Assembly (NCBI GenBank): GCA_963674935.2
Contig: CAXXWZ010000007.1
Span: 1,117,500-1,181,499, forward strand
From: Bacteroidales bacterium
GTDB lineage: Bacteria; Bacteroidota; Bacteroidia; Bacteroidales; GCA-2711565
Reading direction: 5' to 3'
Length of the DNA: 64,000 bases
The position numbers and the translations under genes were made by a program. Shown here piece by piece: positions 3,401 through 21,076 of the stretch; within the stretch, counting starts at the first letter, position 1, and each line of letters begins with the position of its first letter. The notes beneath the pieces are model-generated. The model did not search any database, was not told where the DNA came from, and saw only the letters and a list, made by a program, of their open reading frames with translations.

Positions 3401-4600
3401 CTAAATTGTTCTGCCCGGATAAACTTTTAATGCTTGATCTAAGCATTTGATAGAACTCCTTAAATCATCACAATTTAAAACATAACTAATTCTAACTTCA
3501 TCCAGTCCCCTACCCTTTGATGAATAGAAACCTGAAGCTGGTGCTAACATTACTGTTTCATTTTTAAAACTAAAATCTTCGAGCAACCACTTGCAGAATT
3601 TATCAGAATCATCAATAGGCAACTTAGCCACCACGTAAAATGCACCTGCAGGATTTGGGCAAAAAGCACCTTCAATTTTATTGATTCCTTCAACAACTGC
3701 ATTTCTTCGTGCAATGTATTCAGCAGACACCTCTGTAAAATAAGATTTCGGCGTATCAATAGCTGCTTCTGAAGCAACCTGACCAAATGTTGGTGGGCTT
3801 AATCGAGCCTGGGCAAATTTAAGTGCCGTTTTCATTACTTCTTTATTCTTGGAAATCATGCATCCAATTCTTACACCACAGGCACTGTATCGCTTCGAAA
3901 CTGAATCGATTAATATTACATTATTCTCAATTTCTTTTAGATACATGGCTGAATAATGTTTATGCCCATCATAAACAAACTCCCGATACACTTCATCAGC
4001 AATTAAGTATAAATCATATTTTTTCACCAGTTCTTGTAAAACTTCGAGCTCAGCTTTAGAATACAGATAACCAGTTGGATTATTCGGATTACACACCATA
4101 ATGGCCTTGGTTTTTGGTGTGATGGCTTTTTCAAATTCTTCCATCTTTGGCAAAGCAAAACCACTGTCTATACTTGAAAAGATTGGCTTAACAGAAACAC
4201 CTGAATTAATTGCAAATCCGTTATAATTAGCATAGAAAGGTTCAGGGATGATAATCTCATCTCCCGGATCTAAACAGGTTTGCATGGCAAAAAGAATGGC
4301 TTCAGAAGCACCAGCTGATACGATAATATCATCAGCTGTTATATGAATATCATGTTTGGCATAATAGGTAACCATTTTTTGACGATAGGATAGTATTCCT
4401 GCCGAATGACTATAAGCAACAACTTTCTGATCATAATTTCTGATGGCATCAAGTGCAACTTCAGGAGTTTTTATATCAGGCTGACCGATATTGAGATGAT
4501 GAACTTTAATTCCTCTACTTTTAGCATTCTCTGCATAAGGCACCAATTTACGAATTGGAGACTCAGGCATTTGCTGCCCCTTTAATGAAATTTTTGGCAT
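3401..4600 (-). CDS. Pyridoxal-phosphate-dependent aminotransferase, class I/II (aspartate/aromatic type)
   Basis: 399 aa. It has the NIGQPD N-terminal motif, NPNNPTG, and the PLP-lysine context SVSKRYSACGVRIG. Confidence 0.9.
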   Translation of the reverse strand: MPKISLKGQQMPESPIRKLVPYAENAKSRGIKVHHLNIGQPDIKTPEVALDAIRNYDQKVVAYSHSAGILSYRQKMVTYYAKHDIHITADDIIVSAGASEAILFAMQTCLDPGDEIIIPEPFYANYNGFAINSGVSVKPIFSSIDSGFALPKMEEFEKAITPKTKAIMVCNPNNPTGYLYSKAELEVLQELVKKYDLYLIADEVYREFVYDGHKHYSAMYLKEIENNVILIDSVSKRYSACGVRIGCMISKNKEVMKTALKFAQARLSPPTFGQVASEAAIDTPKSYFTEVSAEYIARRNAVVEGINKIEGAFCPNPAGAFYVVAKLPIDDSDKFCKWLLEDFSFKNETVMLAPASGFYSSKGRGLDEVRISYVLNCDDLRSSIKCLDQALKVYPGRTI

Positions 4601-12790: not shown

Positions 12791-15700
12791 TTAGATCTTC
12801 ACCACTTTTTTACTTGCAACTATTTGGCCTTCATGGTTAGTAATTATGATATGGTATGAGCCATCGATGAGATGTTCGAGATTAAGTTGAACTTTGTGGT
12901 CGTTAAAAGATTTTGATAGTTTTATCTGTCTAACCAATGTTCCATTTGGATTAACGATTGAGACCAACCGTGCATCTATATCTCCACTTATTTCTAGGTT
13001 AATAATATTATTAGTTGGGTTAGGATAAAGTAAAATTAACCCTTCGTGTTCCTGTAAATCATTAATTCCTGTTGTTGTGGAAACATAAACCCTAACCGTG
13101 TCATAAGTACTTTCATACTCATCACTCACAAAAACAGTATAAAGTGTTGTTTGTGTAGGTTCAACATTTGCGTTAATTTCATTGCAAAATTCTCCTGTTT
13201 CATCTTGCCAACTGCAAGCAATGATTGAATTTGATTGGTTCACAAGCTCAACAGATAATTGCACACGCTGTCCGGCTATAATTGAATCGGGACTAGCCAT
13301 TGCAATCAAGTAAAAGGTTCCACCAATTTCTTCAGCAATGATATCTTCACCAACATTTATATATCCAATGCTGTCGGGCTCAAAAATATAGCCCGGCCTG
13401 GTTGGGATAGCCCAACCACAATATCCTGCCGGAACCATCATTGTGTATTCTCCTAGGTCATTGGTAGTTGTACTTTGCTCAATTTTGGTGAAAAAGATGT
13501 TTGTTGCAGGTAATGAACTTTTCAATCCAATGGTTTGCACCCTCCCTCTAATTTGATAAAACACTCCTGTTTCAACTTTAATAGTTATCTGATCTTCAAC
13601 AATACATCCTGTTTCGTTATCTGTTACTTGCAAAGTGAATGTGGTTGTTTGAGTAATCGGACTCGTAACCGGATTTAATATTGTTGGATCAGAAACTATT
13701 TCGGCAGGAGTCCAGGAATAAGAATAATTTCCACTTCCTTGAACACTTGCATTTAGCTGCACTTGGGTATTCTCATAAACTGTTAAATCAATTCCTGCAT
13801 CCACCTCTGGTGAATCATAAAATGAAAGAATCATTTGATCAGAAGCTACTATTTCACAAGGTAGAGCAGCAGTAACATTAATAGCCAATGTTACCGATCC
13901 ATGAGCCATATCATTCTCTCCGGGAGTGTAAATTGGGTTTAAAATATTTACATCATTAAAAATCCCATCACCTAAACTAATCCATGTCAACGATTCATAA
14001 TTTTGAGCAGTTGCAGTTAACTGATAACTTGCATTTGCACAAATCGTTGCTTCTTCTACACTAATATCCACTAAAGGTTGCACTTGAATTGTCATAGTTA
14101 CAACATTGGTTGTAAAACTACCACAGCTACTTGAAGAAGTTTGAACTTGCCTAAAATAAGTCTGGGAAATTAATTCGGCAGGTTGATAATTCAATGCTGT
14201 GGCACCAATAATATCAACAAACAAAATGCCATCAGAGGATTGTTGCCATTGATACGAATAAGGTTCGTTTCCACCAGTTGGAGCATTTCCGAGGAGTAAT
14301 TCAGGTGCTGAATTATAGCAAACAATTTGATCACTGGTAATAGAACCAACTACAAACTCTGGATAAACAGTGATAGTTACTAGATTGGTGGCTTTATCTG
14401 CATAATCAAAAGCAGAAGATTGAATTAACTGATAATAGGTTGTTTCCGTAAGAGCGGGTGGTTGATAATCCAGAGCTATAGCTCCTGTAAGATTAATAAA
14501 ATTAATGCTATCCGAAGAACTTTGCCATTGGTAAGCGTATGGTTGACATCCACCTCTTGGTGTAGTTGCTGTTAATTTCTCGGGAACTGAACCATAAACA
14601 ATCTGTTGATCAGATTCAATTGATCCTACGCTAAATTCAGGAAAAACAATAACTATTATTGTGTTGGTAAATTCATTTCCACAGCTTGAAGCAGAACTTT
14701 GCAAAAGTCTGAAATAAGTTGTTTTTGAAAGACGTCCGGCCTGATAATCCAATTGATTTCCTTGATAAATGATATCTGTAAAATTATAACCATCAGTAGA
14801 ACTTTGCCACTGATATATATAAGGCTCTGCTCCTCCTGTTGGATCAATACCTATGAATTTTTCAGGCAAAGCTTGGTAGTAAAGTGTTTGATTTTCGGAA
14901 ATTGAACCTACCTTAAATTCATCATAAACATGAATTTTAATAATATTTGTCGTTAAGGTTCCACATCCAGAACCTGAAATTTGAGCTAAGCGATAATAAG
15001 TAGTTGAGCTTAATGCAGGGGCTTGATAATTCAATTCTGTAGCACCAAGTACATCAATAAAAGTTATACCATCACTTGAACTTTGCCACTGGTAAGAATA
15101 GCCCGGTGATCCTCCAGTTGGAGCAATACCAAATAGCTTTGCTGGAGTAGCATTAAAACAAATGGATTGTGAACTAGAAATTGAACCGACAGTGAACTCT
15201 GGGTAAATAAATTCTTCAATAACATTTGATTCTAAAGCTCCCGACCAATCACTCTCACAATCGACACGGACTAATCGTTTAAACCAAGTTGTTTCGGTAA
15301 TTAGAGGCGGATCATATGTTGATGAATTACTAGCTGGGATGTCAGTAAACCCATCTGTACCGTTTATGATTGATTTTTGCCATTTATACTCTAGTGTTCC
15401 AGTATTCCCGGATGGTAAACTAAGACTAGTTATGGTTTCCGGATCAAAATTAGCGCAGCTCCATTGTGCATTGCCAATGCTTCCTGCTGAAGTAGGCATG
15501 ATACAATCTAAGGTTGTAAAAGTTACATTAGAACCTTCAGTAGTGCCTGATGAGTTTTCTCCAACAACGCGATAATGATAAGTTGTACTAGGTGTTAAAC
15601 CACTTATAGATTTACTCACACTTGTATTTGTATTCCCTGTAATAGGACTTTGATCAGCCGCAATTATAGCTCCATAGCCAGTTGTTAATCCGTACTCAAA

Positions 15701-18700
15701 TATAACAACAGTACTGTCTGAATTCGGATTAACAGTTCCGTTCATTGTAGCTGATTTTTGAACCACAGTTGTAGCAGCATCAGTACTTACGATAGGCACT
15801 GCAGAACCAATTCCCTGAATATTGAAATTATATGGATCTTCGTCGGAATCGTTATTGTCGATGCTAATATTTGCTTTACGAAGCCCTATTGCTGAAGGAT
15901 CAAATTGAACATTGAAAGTGCTTGTGCCACCTGCTGCAGCTAAAGAAACGGTTGGCAGCGCCGATATTGTGAAATCAGCTGCATGAATTCCTCCCACTTC
16001 AACTGTTGGTGTACCTCCCAAAGTTAAAGTTCCTGATCCGGGATTTGTAATAGCGAAAGTCTTGGTCACAATACCACCAGTTACCAGTACGACTCCAAAA
16101 TCAGTTGAATCTACAAGAGAAGGAATGGTATCCCCATCAGCAATTTCAATCGTATTGCCCGAAATAACTATTTCAGGTAATGTAATTCCAGTTCCTTTAA
16201 TAGCGAAAGTATAAGTGGAATCAGTTTCACGATCGTTATTATATATGCTAATTGTAGCATCTTTAACTCCGGCTGTTGTAGGATCAAAAACTATAGAGAA
16301 AGTTGTTGTTGCGCTGTCGATAGCAATTGAGGTTGTGGGTTGTATATTGACATTAAAATCTGCTGCATCAGCTCCACCAATTACAACCTTAACAGAATTA
16401 CTAGATAAAACAAGCGGCTTTTCGCCAACATTTCTAATGGTAAAAGTGCGAGTAACAGAACCAAGAAAGATTTCAGCATTCTCAAAGTCAGTATGATCAA
16501 TAGTGCTTGGGCTTGAATCTTCATCATCAATTATTTGACTGTTTCCCAAAACTTGCATTTTGGGGTTTCCATTCATCTCCCCGGGTGTAGGAAATTGCTG
16601 TGTATATGTGCTAGTATTTCTTGCATCTCCTGAACCATTCGTGATACGTTGGTTGGAGTGATTATCCTTATCCCCCCCCCCTGCTTCATTTACCTGAGGT
16701 TGACTGGCATTTAATAAAACTAATAGACCAGCGTCGTCAGCATCATCAGTATCATATATTAAAGCATCTACCAAATAAGTAGTTGTGACAGGCGTAGTGC
16801 TTGGAAAATTAGATGAACTGTCAGCATACATTGCAATAGCATCAGCTCCATTTTGCAAAGTATTATCAGTAAAACGAATGGAAGCGGCACCTGAAAATCC
16901 ATCTCCAGCAATTAAAAAATATCCATCTGAATCGGTCGAAAATCCATCTAAACTTATCGCATTGGTATGTCCCCCAATATCGTACGAATAATCAAAAGCT
17001 CCGTTATAAAACACAATGATTAATCCATCCAAACTGGTATTTCCAGTTCCACCGTCATAAAGCTCAATAAACTCTTGATCATCTGTTCCGGGGGTATCCG
17101 CATCAACCTCATTAATCATAATATTTTTCGTGAGTTGATTGGATGCATTACCTGTTGATTCCGTAGTTAGGTATTTTTCACATCCACTATCCTTGTTATA
17201 TTCACAAACCATAACCCGATAAGTTGTATTAGGCATTAACCCATTAACAATTACTGAATCGGCGGTTCCATTAGCTACACAATACCAACCTGAGCCTCCA
17301 ATTTGTGAACCTTTTTTAAAGTGAGTATTGGCTGTGTAAGTGTCGTAATTAACAGGCACAGCGGTTCCTGTTGTACCTTCTTTTATGAAAACGACTCGTT
17401 TTGATCCATTCCCATTGGTCCAATCAATTTCAAGTTGTACCGCTCCGGTATCTGAAAAAACTATAGAACTAGCTTGAATAGTAGGAGCCATAAAGTCGTC
17501 GATTATGGTAACGATATTGGTAGAATCGATACCACAACCCCAATCAGAACCTTGTAATTGTCGATAATAGGTAGTATCAGTAAGCGCTGGAGGTTGAAAA
17601 TTTATACTATTTGCTCCAGAAATATCAGAAAAAGTAGATCCATCGGTAGAATTTTGCCATTGATAAGCATAAGCTCCACCACCACCTGTTGGGGTAACTC
17701 CAATTAATTCATCGGCCACAGAATTGTAACAAACGGACTGACTAGCAGAAATTGAGCCAACTGCAAATGGTTCATAAACATTGATTGTTATCTTATTGGT
17801 TGTTAGAACTCCACAACCTGAAGCCGAACTTTGAATTAATTGATAGTACATGGTATCAGTTAAAACTCCCGGCTGATAATCCAAATTAGTTTCTCCTGAG
17901 ATATTTGAAAAAGTAGCATTATCCGTTGAGCTCTGCCATTGATAAGTATAGGGTCCTGTGCCACCTGTTGGGGCAACTCCTATTAATTTTGCAGGTGCAG
18001 TGTTATAACAAATATTTTGATTTGAAGAAATTGAACCAACAACAAATAGTGGATAAACTGTAATTTTGACCGAACTAGTTGTATCAATTCCACAACCCGA
18101 AGCAGAAGTTTGTTCTAAACGATAATAAGTTGTATCGGACAAAGCTCCCGCCTGATAATTCAAACTGGTAGCACCAGAAACATCAGAATAGCTCATTCCA
18201 TCAGTAGAACTAATCCATTGATAAGTGTAAGGTGTATCACCACCTGTAGGAGCCACACCAATAAGATTTGCTGGGGTAGTATTAAAACAGATAGATTGAT
18301 CAGAAGAAATTGTTCCAGCGGCAAATGCTGGAAAAACAGCCATTTCAATAACATTAGATTCCAGCGCTCCGGACCAATCAGGATGGCAATCAACCAGAAC
18401 CAGTCTTTTAAACCAAGTAGTATCAGATAAATTTGATGGATCAAAAGTTGCCGAATTACTGGATGCAATATCTGAAAAACCAGCTGTACTGCTTGTGGTT
18501 GATTGCTGCCATTTATATTCAAGTGTCCCTGAATGACCAGAAGGCAATGTTAGGCTTGTAATTGCAGTTGGATCAAATCCAAGGCAACCCTCCTGCGCAT
18601 TTCCAATAGTACCAGCTGCTGTGGGGTTAATACAATCTAAGGTGGTAAAAGTTTGATCTGATCCATTGGTAGTACCTATCGAATTTACACCTTTAACACG

Positions 18701-21076
18701 AAAATGATAAGTTGTACTAGGCGTTAAACTACTGATATTCTTACTAACAGATGTATTTGAAGTGCCTGTTACTGGACTTTCATCCGCTGTTATACTGGTT
18801 CCATAACTATCCGTTAGTCCATATTCAAATGTAACTGTTGTACTTAATGTATTGGCATTAATAGTTCCATTTAAAGTGGCTGATTGTTGAACGACGCTCG
18901 TTGCAGCATTTGTTGTCGCAGTTGGAACCGCAAAGCCTGTACCTTGGATATTAAAATTATAAGGATTTTCATCATCATCATCATTTGCAATGCTGAGGCT
19001 GGCAATTCGTGTTCCCGAAGCACTGGGATTGAATGTAATTCTAAAAATACTTGATCCTGAAGATGCGATACTATTTGAAGGTATTGTGGTCACACTAAAA
19101 TCACCAGCATGTGTTCCTGATATTGCAACATAAGGAGAACTATCTGTTAAGCTCAATGCAGCTCCTCCTGTATTTTCTATGGTGAAGGTTCTAATAACCG
19201 TTCCTCCATTCACATCCGCATTACCAAAGTCTGTATGATCGCTTAATGAAGGACTGGTATCGCCATCGGCAATTGAAACTGAGTTGCCTTTCACATCTAT
19301 TTCCGATCCATTGTAAATAATTGTGGCTGTTCCACCATTCCAACTTGTTACATTAGTCGGAGATGGGTCTTCATCATGATTGGCCGAATATCTGATATAG
19401 GTATCTGTATTCGTGTCATTATCGATATGCCAATACCGATCCCCACCGAAAAAACCATTATAGATATAATATTCTTCAGATTCGTGTTTCCAATACTCTA
19501 ATTCATTTAAGATACCTTGATAAGTATAAACGCCGTTCGCCGCTGCCGGTGAACTGATATTAGAAACAAGGAGTTCGTAAGCCGCCCCGCCCCAGCCTTC
19601 CACACTAAAATTATAATTAGCCTCATCGGCATCATTACTAGCAATATTTAATACTGCAGAATTTGTTCCCTCAACCGAAGGATCAAAAGTTACAATGAAT
19701 GTTGTATTCCCATATCCTGCAACAGATGAAGCCGGTGGTGTGGTTATACTAAAAGCGGCAGCACCTGAACCACTGATGGTAACATAAGGTGATGCACCAG
19801 ATAATGTTAGTGTTGCAGAACCTAAATTTTGAATTGTGAACGTACGGGTTCTACTTCCTGAAGCTATATTCAAAGAACCAAAAAATGTATGGTCATCAAA
19901 AGAAGGTGAACTATGTTCATCAAATATTGTTACACTATTGCCTAGTAAATTTATATCCGATTCAGGAGTAGCAGCTTCAACTGCAAGCGTGCCAGTTGCA
20001 GGAGCATTAGCTGCCCAGCCCGTAAGACCTATTGGGCTTGCTTCATCCGACGATTTACTAAAAATATGATCATCATCTGATCCGTCAATATCTACATCTA
20101 AGTGCCAATATAACGTGCCGGAGTTTATTTCATTATGAAGATAATAGTTTTGTGAGGAATGCTTCCAATATTCAAATCTATCGTCCGTACCTTGATGAAC
20201 ATAAGTTCCATTTGCTGCAGCAGGATTGCTGACTCCTGACACAATTATATTTTTAGGCGTAAAACCTGAGCCATGAATAGTAAAATTATAAGGGTCTTCA
20301 TCAGAATCACTATTGGCTATTGATACTGTTGCAGTTCGCCCCCCTATTGCACTTGGATTAAAAGTTATCACAAAAGTTGTTGAACCACCAGCACTAATTG
20401 GTGTTGTAGGAGTTGTAGTCACACTAAAATCTCCGGCATTAGTACCACTAATTGAAACATACGGAGAAGAACCATCAAGAGTTAGATTTACAGCGCCGGT
20501 ATTATAAATGACAAAACTACGTGTTAAAGTTCCCCCTGAAATGTTAGCAGAACCAAATTTAGTATGATCTTCAAATCTTGGGGTTCCATCTCCATCTGCA
20601 ATTGAAACTCCATTTCCTCTGATATCAATTTCCGCATCAACAGCAACTTCTGAAACGACTACCCCTCCCGTTGAAGTTCCGTCACTCGGCGTATAACTGG
20701 AGCCGGCAGGTGAAACATCACCATCAGCCTCATAATAAAAAAAAACTCTTGCATCATCATAATCATCATCAATATTCCAATAATAATGATGATCACCTCC
20801 ATCATATTGATGCTTATATACCATATAATTTCCTGAAGTATGTACCCAAAAAGAAAAAGTGTACATTGTTCCTGATTGCTTCACATAAGTTCCATTTGCC
20901 GCAGCAGGGGTTGTAATACCAGATATCAGTAAGTTTTGTGTATAAGCATCAAAGCATAGTAACATAAGAACTGGTAAAAGAATCCAGAAAATTTTAGTTC
21001 TGGATTTTGAATCTTTAGCTTTTGTAATCACTGACCGTGAATTACTTTGATTGAATTGCGGTTGTAGATGATTCAT
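12791..21076 (-). CDS. Giant (2761 aa) repetitive T9SS-secreted surface protein / putative adhesin
   Basis: One uninterrupted ORF with an N-terminal signal (IFWILLPVLMLLCFDAYTQ). Domains in order: three copies of an unnamed module plus a choice-of-anchor-D-like domain, an FN3-like domain, four YxWQ repeats, an FN3-like domain, a lamin-tail-like domain, two choice-of-anchor-D-like domains, an FN3-like domain, five YxWQ repeats, PKD-like and CarboxypepD_reg-like segments, and a C-terminal T9SS sorting domain. Confidence 0.85.
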   Translation of the reverse strand: MNHLQPQFNQSNSRSVITKAKDSKSRTKIFWILLPVLMLLCFDAYTQNLLISGITTPAAANGTYVKQSGTMYTFSFWVHTSGNYMVYKHQYDGGDHHYYWNIDDDYDDARVFFYYEADGDVSPAGSSYTPSDGTSTGGVVVSEVAVDAEIDIRGNGVSIADGDGTPRFEDHTKFGSANISGGTLTRSFVIYNTGAVNLTLDGSSPYVSISGTNAGDFSVTTTPTTPISAGGSTTFVITFNPSAIGGRTATVSIANSDSDEDPYNFTIHGSGFTPKNIIVSGVSNPAAANGTYVHQGTDDRFEYWKHSSQNYYLHNEINSGTLYWHLDVDIDGSDDDHIFSKSSDEASPIGLTGWAANAPATGTLAVEAATPESDINLLGNSVTIFDEHSSPSFDDHTFFGSLNIASGSRTRTFTIQNLGSATLTLSGASPYVTISGSGAAAFSITTPPASSVAGYGNTTFIVTFDPSVEGTNSAVLNIASNDADEANYNFSVEGWGGAAYELLVSNISSPAAANGVYTYQGILNELEYWKHESEEYYIYNGFFGGDRYWHIDNDTNTDTYIRYSANHDEDPSPTNVTSWNGGTATIIYNGSEIDVKGNSVSIADGDTSPSLSDHTDFGNADVNGGTVIRTFTIENTGGAALSLTDSSPYVAISGTHAGDFSVTTIPSNSIASSGSSIFRITFNPSASGTRIASLSIANDDDDENPYNFNIQGTGFAVPTATTNAATSVVQQSATLNGTINANTLSTTVTFEYGLTDSYGTSITADESPVTGTSNTSVSKNISSLTPSTTYHFRVKGVNSIGTTNGSDQTFTTLDCINPTAAGTIGNAQEGCLGFDPTAITSLTLPSGHSGTLEYKWQQSTTSSTAGFSDIASSNSATFDPSNLSDTTWFKRLVLVDCHPDWSGALESNVIEMAVFPAFAAGTISSDQSICFNTTPANLIGVAPTGGDTPYTYQWISSTDGMSYSDVSGATSLNYQAGALSDTTYYRLEQTSASGCGIDTTSSVKITVYPLFVVGSISSNQNICYNTAPAKLIGVAPTGGTGPYTYQWQSSTDNATFSNISGETNLDYQPGVLTDTMYYQLIQSSASGCGVLTTNKITINVYEPFAVGSISASQSVCYNSVADELIGVTPTGGGGAYAYQWQNSTDGSTFSDISGANSINFQPPALTDTTYYRQLQGSDWGCGIDSTNIVTIIDDFMAPTIQASSIVFSDTGAVQLEIDWTNGNGSKRVVFIKEGTTGTAVPVNYDTYTANTHFKKGSQIGGSGWYCVANGTADSVIVNGLMPNTTYRVMVCEYNKDSGCEKYLTTESTGNASNQLTKNIMINEVDADTPGTDDQEFIELYDGGTGNTSLDGLIIVFYNGAFDYSYDIGGHTNAISLDGFSTDSDGYFLIAGDGFSGAASIRFTDNTLQNGADAIAMYADSSSNFPSTTPVTTTYLVDALIYDTDDADDAGLLVLLNASQPQVNEAGGGDKDNHSNQRITNGSGDARNTSTYTQQFPTPGEMNGNPKMQVLGNSQIIDDEDSSPSTIDHTDFENAEIFLGSVTRTFTIRNVGEKPLVLSSNSVKVVIGGADAADFNVNIQPTTSIAIDSATTTFSIVFDPTTAGVKDATISIYNNDRETDSTYTFAIKGTGITLPEIVISGNTIEIADGDTIPSLVDSTDFGVVLVTGGIVTKTFAITNPGSGTLTLGGTPTVEVGGIHAADFTISALPTVSLAAAGGTSTFNVQFDPSAIGLRKANISIDNNDSDEDPYNFNIQGIGSAVPIVSTDAATTVVQKSATMNGTVNPNSDSTVVIFEYGLTTGYGAIIAADQSPITGNTNTSVSKSISGLTPSTTYHYRVVGENSSGTTEGSNVTFTTLDCIMPTSAGSIGNAQWSCANFDPETITSLSLPSGNTGTLEYKWQKSIINGTDGFTDIPASNSSTYDPPLITETTWFKRLVRVDCESDWSGALESNVIEEFIYPEFTVGSISSSQSICFNATPAKLFGIAPTGGSPGYSYQWQSSSDGITFIDVLGATELNYQAPALSSTTYYRLAQISGSGCGTLTTNIIKIHVYDEFKVGSISENQTLYYQALPEKFIGIDPTGGAEPYIYQWQSSTDGYNFTDIIYQGNQLDYQAGRLSKTTYFRLLQSSASSCGNEFTNTIIVIVFPEFSVGSIESDQQIVYGSVPEKLTATTPRGGCQPYAYQWQSSSDSINFINLTGAIALDYQPPALTETTYYQLIQSSAFDYADKATNLVTITVYPEFVVGSITSDQIVCYNSAPELLLGNAPTGGNEPYSYQWQQSSDGILFVDIIGATALNYQPAELISQTYFRQVQTSSSSCGSFTTNVVTMTIQVQPLVDISVEEATICANASYQLTATAQNYESLTWISLGDGIFNDVNILNPIYTPGENDMAHGSVTLAINVTAALPCEIVASDQMILSFYDSPEVDAGIDLTVYENTQVQLNASVQGSGNYSYSWTPAEIVSDPTILNPVTSPITQTTTFTLQVTDNETGCIVEDQITIKVETGVFYQIRGRVQTIGLKSSLPATNIFFTKIEQSTTTNDLGEYTMMVPAGYCGWAIPTRPGYIFEPDSIGYINVGEDIIAEEIGGTFYLIAMASPDSIIAGQRVQLSVELVNQSNSIIACSWQDETGEFCNEINANVEPTQTTLYTVFVSDEYESTYDTVRVYVSTTTGINDLQEHEGLILLYPNPTNNIINLEISGDIDARLVSIVNPNGTLVRQIKLSKSFNDHKVQLNLEHLIDGSYHIIITNHEGQIVASKKVVKI
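12794..13050 (-). other. T9SS type A C-terminal sorting domain of the giant protein
   Basis: The last ~85 aa read LILLYPNPTNNIINLEISGDIDARLVSIVNPNGTLVRQIKL...GSYHIIITNHEGQIVASKKVVKI. This is the classic Por_Secre_tail pattern (YPNPT near its start, hydrophobic K/V-I end). Confidence 0.8.
14075..15525 (-). repeat. Tandem coding repeats, second YxWQ block (5 units of ~280 nt)
   Basis: A ~93-aa unit recurs with the pattern VGSI.S.Q.ICY...P..L.G..PTGG..PY.YQWQSS.DG..F.DI.GAT.L.YQ...L..TTYYR..Q.S...CG. The QWQ-encoding ccactg/ccattg strings recur near 14250, 14525, 14805, 15085 and 15375. Confidence 0.8.
16560..17125 (-). other. Lamin-tail-like (LTD) domain inside the giant protein
   Basis: The string IMINEVDADTPGTDDQEFIELYDGGTGNTSLDGLIIVFYNG...DGYFLIAGDG...ADAIAMY matches the LTD signature INE...D.EFIEL.N...dL.G. 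Confidence 0.65.
16672..16681 (-). repeat. G10 homopolymer (C10 on + strand) in frame within the giant gene
   Basis: The read is tcccccccccc/ctgc across 16671-16684. On the coding strand this is gaa gca ggg ggg ggg gat = EAGGGD. It is the only G/C run longer than 6 that I found in the window. Confidence 0.95.
17495..18650 (-). repeat. Tandem coding repeats, first YxWQ block (4 units of ~280 nt)
   Basis: The unit is the same as in 14075-15525. The motifs are LEYKWQQS, YTYQWISS, YTYQWQSS and YAYQWQNS, with QW codons near 18500, 18215, 17935 and 17650. Confidence 0.8.
18940..20935 (-). repeat. Three tandem ~225-aa units, each an unnamed PAAANG.Y module plus a choice-of-anchor-D-like domain
   Basis: Units start near 20932, 20255 and 19580. 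Each begins [IL][IL].S..[ST].PAAANG.Y and ends with a beta-sandwich of the type I...GN..SI.DGD..PS..D.TDFG.....G....TF.I.N.G...L.L....PYV.ISG..A.DFSV....FNPS..G...A...I.N.D.DE.PYNF.I.G.G. Confidence 0.75.

Follow-up and report, generated by a model that had tools for sequence, protein, structure and literature searches.

The coding strand of a giant surface-protein gene contains a run of ten consecutive G residues (G10) in the 64,000-nucleotide (nt) stretch of contig CAXXWZ010000007.1 analyzed here (the window), which comes from a Bacteroidales bacterium. We consider it likely that this tract is a lineage-specific incidental homopolymer, i.e., one possible spelling of a conserved glycine loop in a lamin-tail-like domain (LTD). 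Nothing indicates that selection built G10 or maintains it as a switch. The tract is unique to its lineage (absent from orthologues and from 89 other homologous loops), lies mid-gene, is within codon chance for a glycine loop, and occurs in a genome that avoids G/C runs; mismatch repair genes are also present. An earlier note on this DNA had proposed a slipped-strand phase-variation switch. Its mechanical part held, in that gaining or losing one base in the tract shortens the protein and takes away the C-terminal sorting domain (CTD), whereas an evolved contingency switch was not supported. G10 is a real and mutable, but probably incidental, homopolymer, and homopolymers prone to slippage are ordinary and already known in coding regions.

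The G10 tract and the glycine loop that it encodes

The tract reads as ten consecutive C on the plus strand and, by exact sequence reading, as G10 on the coding strand, where the context GTA AAT GAA GCA GGG GGG GGG GAT AAG GAT AAT CAC encodes V N E A G G G D K D N H. The earlier description of an in-frame tract encoding GGG within NEAGGGDKDNH was correct in every detail of the sequence and its translation. A single long open reading frame (ORF) spans the tract, which starts at nt 4396 of 8286, or 53% along the gene (Table 1). It had also been stated that this region of about one-third GC holds no other G/C run longer than 6; this was confirmed, as the GC content of the window is 35.0% and the further G/C runs of at least 6 in it are three 6-mers. 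In the whole assembly (3,798,184 bp in 8 contigs with 34.6-35.6% GC), G/C runs of 3, 4, 5, 6, 7, 8, 9, and 10 nt number 33100, 5314, 764, 91, 12, 3, 2, and 1, respectively, and G10 is the single longest of them. One hallmark of contingency loci, a G/C homopolymer of 7-8 nt or more inside a reading frame or promoter, is present here in the form of G10.

The region around the tract matches the Pfam LTD family (PF00932) at residues 1316-1419 with 27.8 bits, which is below the gathering cut-off of 34.3. Among the homologues listed, which are 42-64% identical, most have a precomputed match to PF00932, and the LTD homology, which covers proteins of many phyla, extends as far as a PTPG motif at about residue 1500. 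Residues 1316-1515 were modeled with AlphaFold2, with a predicted local distance difference test (pLDDT) score of 88.4 and a predicted template modeling (pTM) score of 0.87; the model places AGGG in a loop, after which come two further beta strands. When this model was compared with PDB structures by Foldseek, the top seven matches were the immunoglobulin (Ig)-like tails of lamin A/C and B1 (probability 0.97-1.00, target-normalised TM-score 0.41-0.53). On the basis of the model, the domain around the tract is predicted to have the Ig-like beta-sandwich fold of lamin tails.

The loop QVNE-AGGG-DKDNHSNQR, to which the tract contributes codons, lies ahead of the last two beta strands of the LTD. 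In an alignment of 60 LTD homologues, glycine is the commonest residue at each of the three tract positions (39/60, 26/60, and 50/60). We also compared 90 homologous loops at the DNA level (this locus and 89 others), which span Bacteroidota, Chloroflexota, Actinomycetota, Gemmatimonadota, Gammaproteobacteria, and others. These loops follow the motif QVNE-[GD]G[Ax]G-DKDN, and the gap between NE and DKDN is four residues in all 90 of them. Because of this prevalence of glycine and the fixed four-residue gap across homologues, the amino-acid sequence is a constrained glycine-rich loop, of which G10 is just one codon spelling. In the assembly the tract has the in-frame (ON) length, and this matches the loop length across the family. 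As a separate observation, the wider loop QVNE-GGxG-DKDN-HSxQR-(C/I)PNG is strikingly conserved across phyla, and its acidic/glycine pattern looks like that of a metal-binding loop.

Table 1. Coordinates and properties of the features discussed in the text (window positions unless a contig handle is given)
Feature	Position	Strand	Details
G10 homopolymer	16672..16681	(-)	codons 1466-1468 (GGG GGG GGG) and base 1 of GAT (codon 1469)
LTD, residues ~1319-1502	16571..17122	(-)	homologue alignment, AlphaFold2, Foldseek; weak Pfam LTD match
TAA used after +1 (G11) or -2 (G8) slip	16667..16669	(-)	products of 1469 / 1468 aa
TGA used after -1 (G9) or +2 (G12) slip	16573..16575	(-)	products of 1500 / 1501 aa
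Multi-domain surface-protein gene, 2761 aa	12791..21076	(-)	Pfam domains
T9SS CTD (Por_Secre_tail, PF18962), residues 2683-2759	12800..13030	(-)	39 bits, cut-off 27
G9 tract, this genome (G000)	C2:813585-813593
G9 tract, this genome (G000)	C6:6468-6476
Orthologue in G003			75% identity to query; site AAT GAT AAC GGA
Orthologue in G011			67% identity to query; site GAT GGA AAT GGA
Orthologue in G005			61% identity to query; site AAT GGA CGG GGA

Relatives, chance expectation, and genome-wide run statistics

At this site, G runs in the 89 other homologous loops reach 7 at most (GAG GGG GGG AGT, found at two loci), and in most of these loops the run is 2-3 long. The tract is also absent from six orthologues or paralogues of the same genus, the closest of which have G runs of 2-4, and G/C runs in the compared stretches of the same-genus orthologous genes do not exceed 5. 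The comparison with orthologues, which the earlier note had named as a check, therefore found no recurrence of the tract at the orthologous site such as would mark a contingency locus, though all of these orthologues come from other species and share at most 75% amino-acid identity. This absence is one half of what the earlier note had said would refute a switch. That value belongs to the nearest relative: a search of genome contigs with a 433-aa query gave a best identity of 75%, in OY775914.1 (a metagenome-assembled genome, or MAG, labeled "Bacteroidales bacterium"). A search of metagenome contigs for same-species copies, using the exact flanks and a variable gap, returned 0 matches; a protein-guided scan of metagenome contigs reached at best 64% identity and gave no same-species sequence; and a fragment-sized search of 5.8e9 protein clusters gave nothing above 64% identity. 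The 90%-identity cluster of the 2761-aa protein is a singleton. This uncultured species is represented by this one assembly alone.

For the chance expectation, synonymous codons were shuffled within each of 2663 ORFs, 60 times, so that the proteins and the codon usage of each gene were kept. The shuffled genomes contained a mean of 0.37 runs of at least 10, and 32% of them had at least one, compared to the one observed. GGG makes up 11.5% of glycine codons, and across the 463 Gly-Gly-Gly windows in the 2663 long ORFs, GGG-GGG-GGG is seen once against 0.7 expected; this single case is the tract at the present locus. The real genome has far fewer coding G/C runs of 7 (10 observed vs 36 expected) and of 8 (2 vs 8.5) than the shuffles, i.e., a 3-4-fold depletion of 7-8-mers, and thus suppresses coding G/C homopolymers and does not recruit them. 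This depletion indicates selection against mutable runs. The distribution of run lengths falls monotonically, without a secondary mode, and the over-representation of long tracts relative to codon expectation that characterizes contingency loci was not observed.

The suppression of coding homopolymers is a general prokaryotic pattern (Lin and Kussell, PMC3315296). The simple sequence repeats (SSRs) that underlie phase variation are enriched near N-termini, and mid-gene SSRs are usually suppressed (PMC3315296). A location at the 5' end or in the promoter is typical of contingency loci, if not defining, and G10 at 53% of the gene has no such location. None of the five other G/C tracts of at least 8 in the genome joins two long frames, as a gene in an OFF state would; they are intergenic, in the last codons of a gene, or in frame. 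In addition, MutL (a 617-aa frame) and MutS (an 878-aa frame) are both present with intact frames.

Long G runs in the genus as a whole point in the same direction. In the sister species G004, whose genome is complete (C1), each of the seven G9 tracts keeps to the reading frame and encodes Gly3 or Pro3, at least two of them within recognisable housekeeping motifs; in this genus, then, Gly3 motifs give rise to long G runs as a by-product. By eye, we take one of these motifs (DTGGGI) to be a histidine-kinase ATP-binding box and another (NGGGKIVN) to be a short-chain dehydrogenase motif. Like G10, the G004 runs that encode a Gly3 segment are single, in frame, and of the G9-G10 size class, and two of them lie in recognisable conserved protein motifs; they differ in being one base shorter and in having an enzyme or sensor gene as host, whereas the host gene here encodes a surface protein.

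Several points weigh against an incidental origin of G10. The tract is the longest G/C run in a run-suppressing genome, and the gene that carries it on its coding strand encodes a surface protein. If the depletion reflects selection against runs, the survival of G10 requires that it be recent or tolerated. Moreover, 7 of the 12 bases at the site differ from an orthologue with near-identical flanking codons, and these differences form a dense cluster, all toward G. Finally, single tracts in Campylobacter jejuni are weakly conserved between strains (PMC3401435), so the absence of the tract from other species is only mild evidence.

Effects of slippage and the proposed switch

The protein in which the tract lies contains, according to Pfam, several HYDIN/VesB-like Ig, FN3, SprB, and CHU_C-type Ig repeats, together with LTD, DUF1573/ASH-type Ig, PKD-like, and Por_Secre_tail domains. 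The last of these is the sorting domain of the type IX secretion system (T9SS). Of the T9SS machinery, the translocon protein SprA was the component searched for, and it is encoded in the same genome by an intact 2479-aa frame (SprA_N, PF14349, 583 bits). With a CTD above the Pfam cut-off and SprA in the genome, the 2761-aa protein is predicted to be a T9SS cargo with a type A CTD. A hydrophobic stretch, KIFWILLPVLMLLCF, is visible by eye at residues ~28-42 near the N-terminus as a candidate Sec signal.

We computed in silico the products of tract lengths from G7 to G13. Lengthening by one base (G11) brings a TAA codon into frame at once and gives a product of 1469 aa, and loss of two bases (G8) leads to the same TAA and 1468 aa. 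Loss of one base (G9) gives 1500 aa, in which 32 aberrant residues (IRIITPTNVSRMVQEMQEILAHIHSNFLHPGR) precede a TGA codon, and gain of two bases (G12) gives 1501 aa with the same aberrant tail. G7 and G13 keep the frame, with one glycine fewer and one more, respectively. The out-of-frame forms lose ~1292 native residues including the CTD, in good agreement with the earlier estimate that a slip of +/-1 costs about 1290 C-terminal residues and the T9SS signal; however, the truncation does not fall after the lamin-tail-like domain, as had been suggested, since the tract is inside that domain and two beta strands follow it. Another hallmark of contingency loci, the reversible abolition of the product by a change of one repeat, was reproduced in silico, as G9 and G11 both lack the CTD.

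As with any run of this kind, G10 would be a hot spot for replication slippage. One-base indels would cut the protein within the LTD at residue 1469 or 1500, with about 1290 residues gone, and, from what is known of T9SS biology, the CTD-less fragment of ~1470-1500 residues would be expected to enter the periplasm and not to reach the cell surface. Null variants at G10 probably arise and revert at a raised rate. As G10 would slip and fragments without a CTD would be unable to pass the T9SS, large populations probably always hold some non-displaying cells. Indel variability in prokaryotes at large climbs steeply from 6 to 10 nt of run length, and G10 tracts of C. jejuni switch at ~4-18 x 10^-4 per division, with a rate that increases with length. 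C. jejuni is not known to have MutS/MutL-type mismatch repair, whereas here mutS and mutL are intact and coding G/C runs are depleted as described above. For a mismatch-repair-proficient cell, we guess that G10 would slip at 1e-5 to 1e-4 per division, a rate lower than that of a C. jejuni G10 by one to two orders of magnitude.

Slippage of this kind is what a contingency switch would use, with selection keeping G10 so that cells with and without the surface protein coexist, the benefit being, for example, escape from phages or grazers that use the protein as a receptor. In its favor, G10 is the longest G/C run in the genome and, read on the coding strand, belongs to a gene for a T9SS surface protein; its out-of-frame lengths are clean, reversible nulls without the CTD; and in C. 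jejuni, where tracts of G8-G11 have switching rates of 1e-4 to 4e-3 per division, single tracts are poorly conserved between strains. We nevertheless regard such a switch as unlikely. No orthologue or homologue carries the tract, its chance spelling in a conserved glycine loop accounts for it, and there is no genome-wide repertoire of similar tracts, G/C runs being depleted and their lengths monotonic. MutS and MutL are present, an OFF state reached mid-gene would still waste the synthesis of ~1470 residues (PMC3315296), and the phase variation described in Bacteroides uses invertases (PMC11868660). A narrower version, in which G10 is a young, lineage-specific contingency locus that turns a giant T9SS adhesin on and off by slippage in a repair-proficient member of the Bacteroidales, is in our judgment distinctly unlikely; here the tract would have arisen by codon drift within the length-constrained glycine loop.

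The contingency genes of C. jejuni offer the closest comparison. In strain NCTC11168 there are 303 G5, 18 G6, 0 G7, and 4 G8 tracts, followed by a mode at G9-G10 (PMC3401435); eight C. jejuni genomes have 11-29 tracts of at least 7 each (PMC3401435), and example loci are capA (G11), cj1139 (G8), and cj0031 (G9) (Bayliss et al. 2012, PMC3401435). Both there and here, an intragenic coding-strand poly-G tract of 8-11 lies in a surface-protein gene, a one-base slip abolishes the product, and individual tracts are poorly conserved between genomes. The difference lies in the repertoire: C. jejuni has 11-29 tracts per 1.6 Mb with a dearth of G6-G8, whereas the 3.8 Mb of the present genome contain one G10 and two G9 tracts, with a monotonic distribution.

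Within Bacteroides, surface phase variation relies on invertible promoters of capsule and SusC/D loci (review PMC11868660). These organisms belong to the same order, and the purpose of stochastic surface variation would be the same; their mechanism, however, is site-specific inversion between inverted repeats, and there is no sign of such a system here. Upstream of the giant gene we found just weak AT-rich inverted repeats, none of them convincing as an invertible promoter, and a switch of that type was rejected for this gene. Our literature search found nothing specific on SSR phase variation in Bacteroidales or the T9SS. If G10 were a true switch, it would add SSR phase variation of a T9SS adhesin to an order in which invertase switching alone is documented, and would bring SSR-based surface variation to a phylum known for invertase switches.

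G10 might also act at the level of RNA. In this case RNA polymerase would stutter on the tract, and a fixed share of the mRNAs would encode a truncated N-terminal isoform while the DNA stays unchanged. Runs of at least 9 can cause reiterative transcription (PMC3711429), and the shifted frames at this locus end soon and would give defined short products. Such transcriptional slippage or recoding is extremely improbable here, as the known bacterial cases occur at A/T runs (PMC3711429), the run is not conserved, the alternative frames downstream, of 0 or 32 codons, give no meaningful ORF, and a CTD-less fragment would have no obvious destination.

As an incidental run, G10 serves mainly as a warning: surface-protein genes of AT-rich Bacteroidales can contain a long G run that is the chance spelling of a conserved Gly-Gly-Gly loop. 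Calling such a tract a contingency locus requires a count of tracts across the genome, a null from codon shuffling, and tract lengths in reads or strains. Annotators may also find the gene split at G10, whether spuriously or truly, in later assemblies of this species.

Assembly reliability and other homopolymers

A different concern is that the tract is a sequencing or assembly miscall, so that its true length differs (and the gene is perhaps broken) or the consensus masks a mixture of lengths. Homopolymers of at least 10 are the chief class of long-read errors, and this MAG in 8 contigs is probably a long-read assembly, its nearest relative being a single-chromosome MAG. Poly-G artefacts also abound on short contigs of another genus member, G011. 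While genomes of the genus otherwise have 0-7 G9 sites each, the 121 G9 pattern matches in G011 (1050 contigs) come from windows that overlap, and many fall within very long runs close to where short contigs end (such as C772:15-41 and C772:2861-2897); these long poly-G/C runs look like sequencing artefacts.

In the present assembly, frameshifts at homopolymers are not a general problem. Genome-wide, 352 long homopolymers are located within open frames that remain intact, most of the 16 places where two frames seemed to meet at an A/T run of at least 8 are natural KKK-stop/ATG gene boundaries, and the 2761-aa and 2479-aa ORFs are intact. Since the assembly is sound at homopolymers and the in-frame length gives the four-residue loop of all 90 matched loops, the G10 call is probably right, although a consensus sequence shows no minority lengths. 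Furthermore, errors alter the length of a run and cannot make one out of GGA AAT GGA. We therefore judge a miscall to be very unlikely.

The natural boundaries share a common form. At many co-directional junctions, a gene ends in ...AAAAAAAAA-TAA and an ATG follows within a few bases (e.g., C2:841563, C2:1532777, and C7:285687), such that an A8-A9 run closes one gene and serves as the A-rich leader of the next.

The giant gene has a second slippage-prone homopolymer, T9 on the coding strand (window 20737-20745). It is found at codons ~111-114 (...RVFFYY...), much closer to the 5' end than G10. A/T runs of 9 are frequent in this genome (155).

One of the two G9 tracts of this genome, that at C2:813585-813593, has an orthologous G9 in G003 (C1:900128-900136), with 92% identity over the surrounding 450 bp. 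Read on the minus strand, the tract forms the final codons (...RAPPLA-stop) of a 138-aa His/Cys-rich ORF, which adjoins a 470-aa lipoprotein-like gene, and a slip there would alter the last few residues alone.

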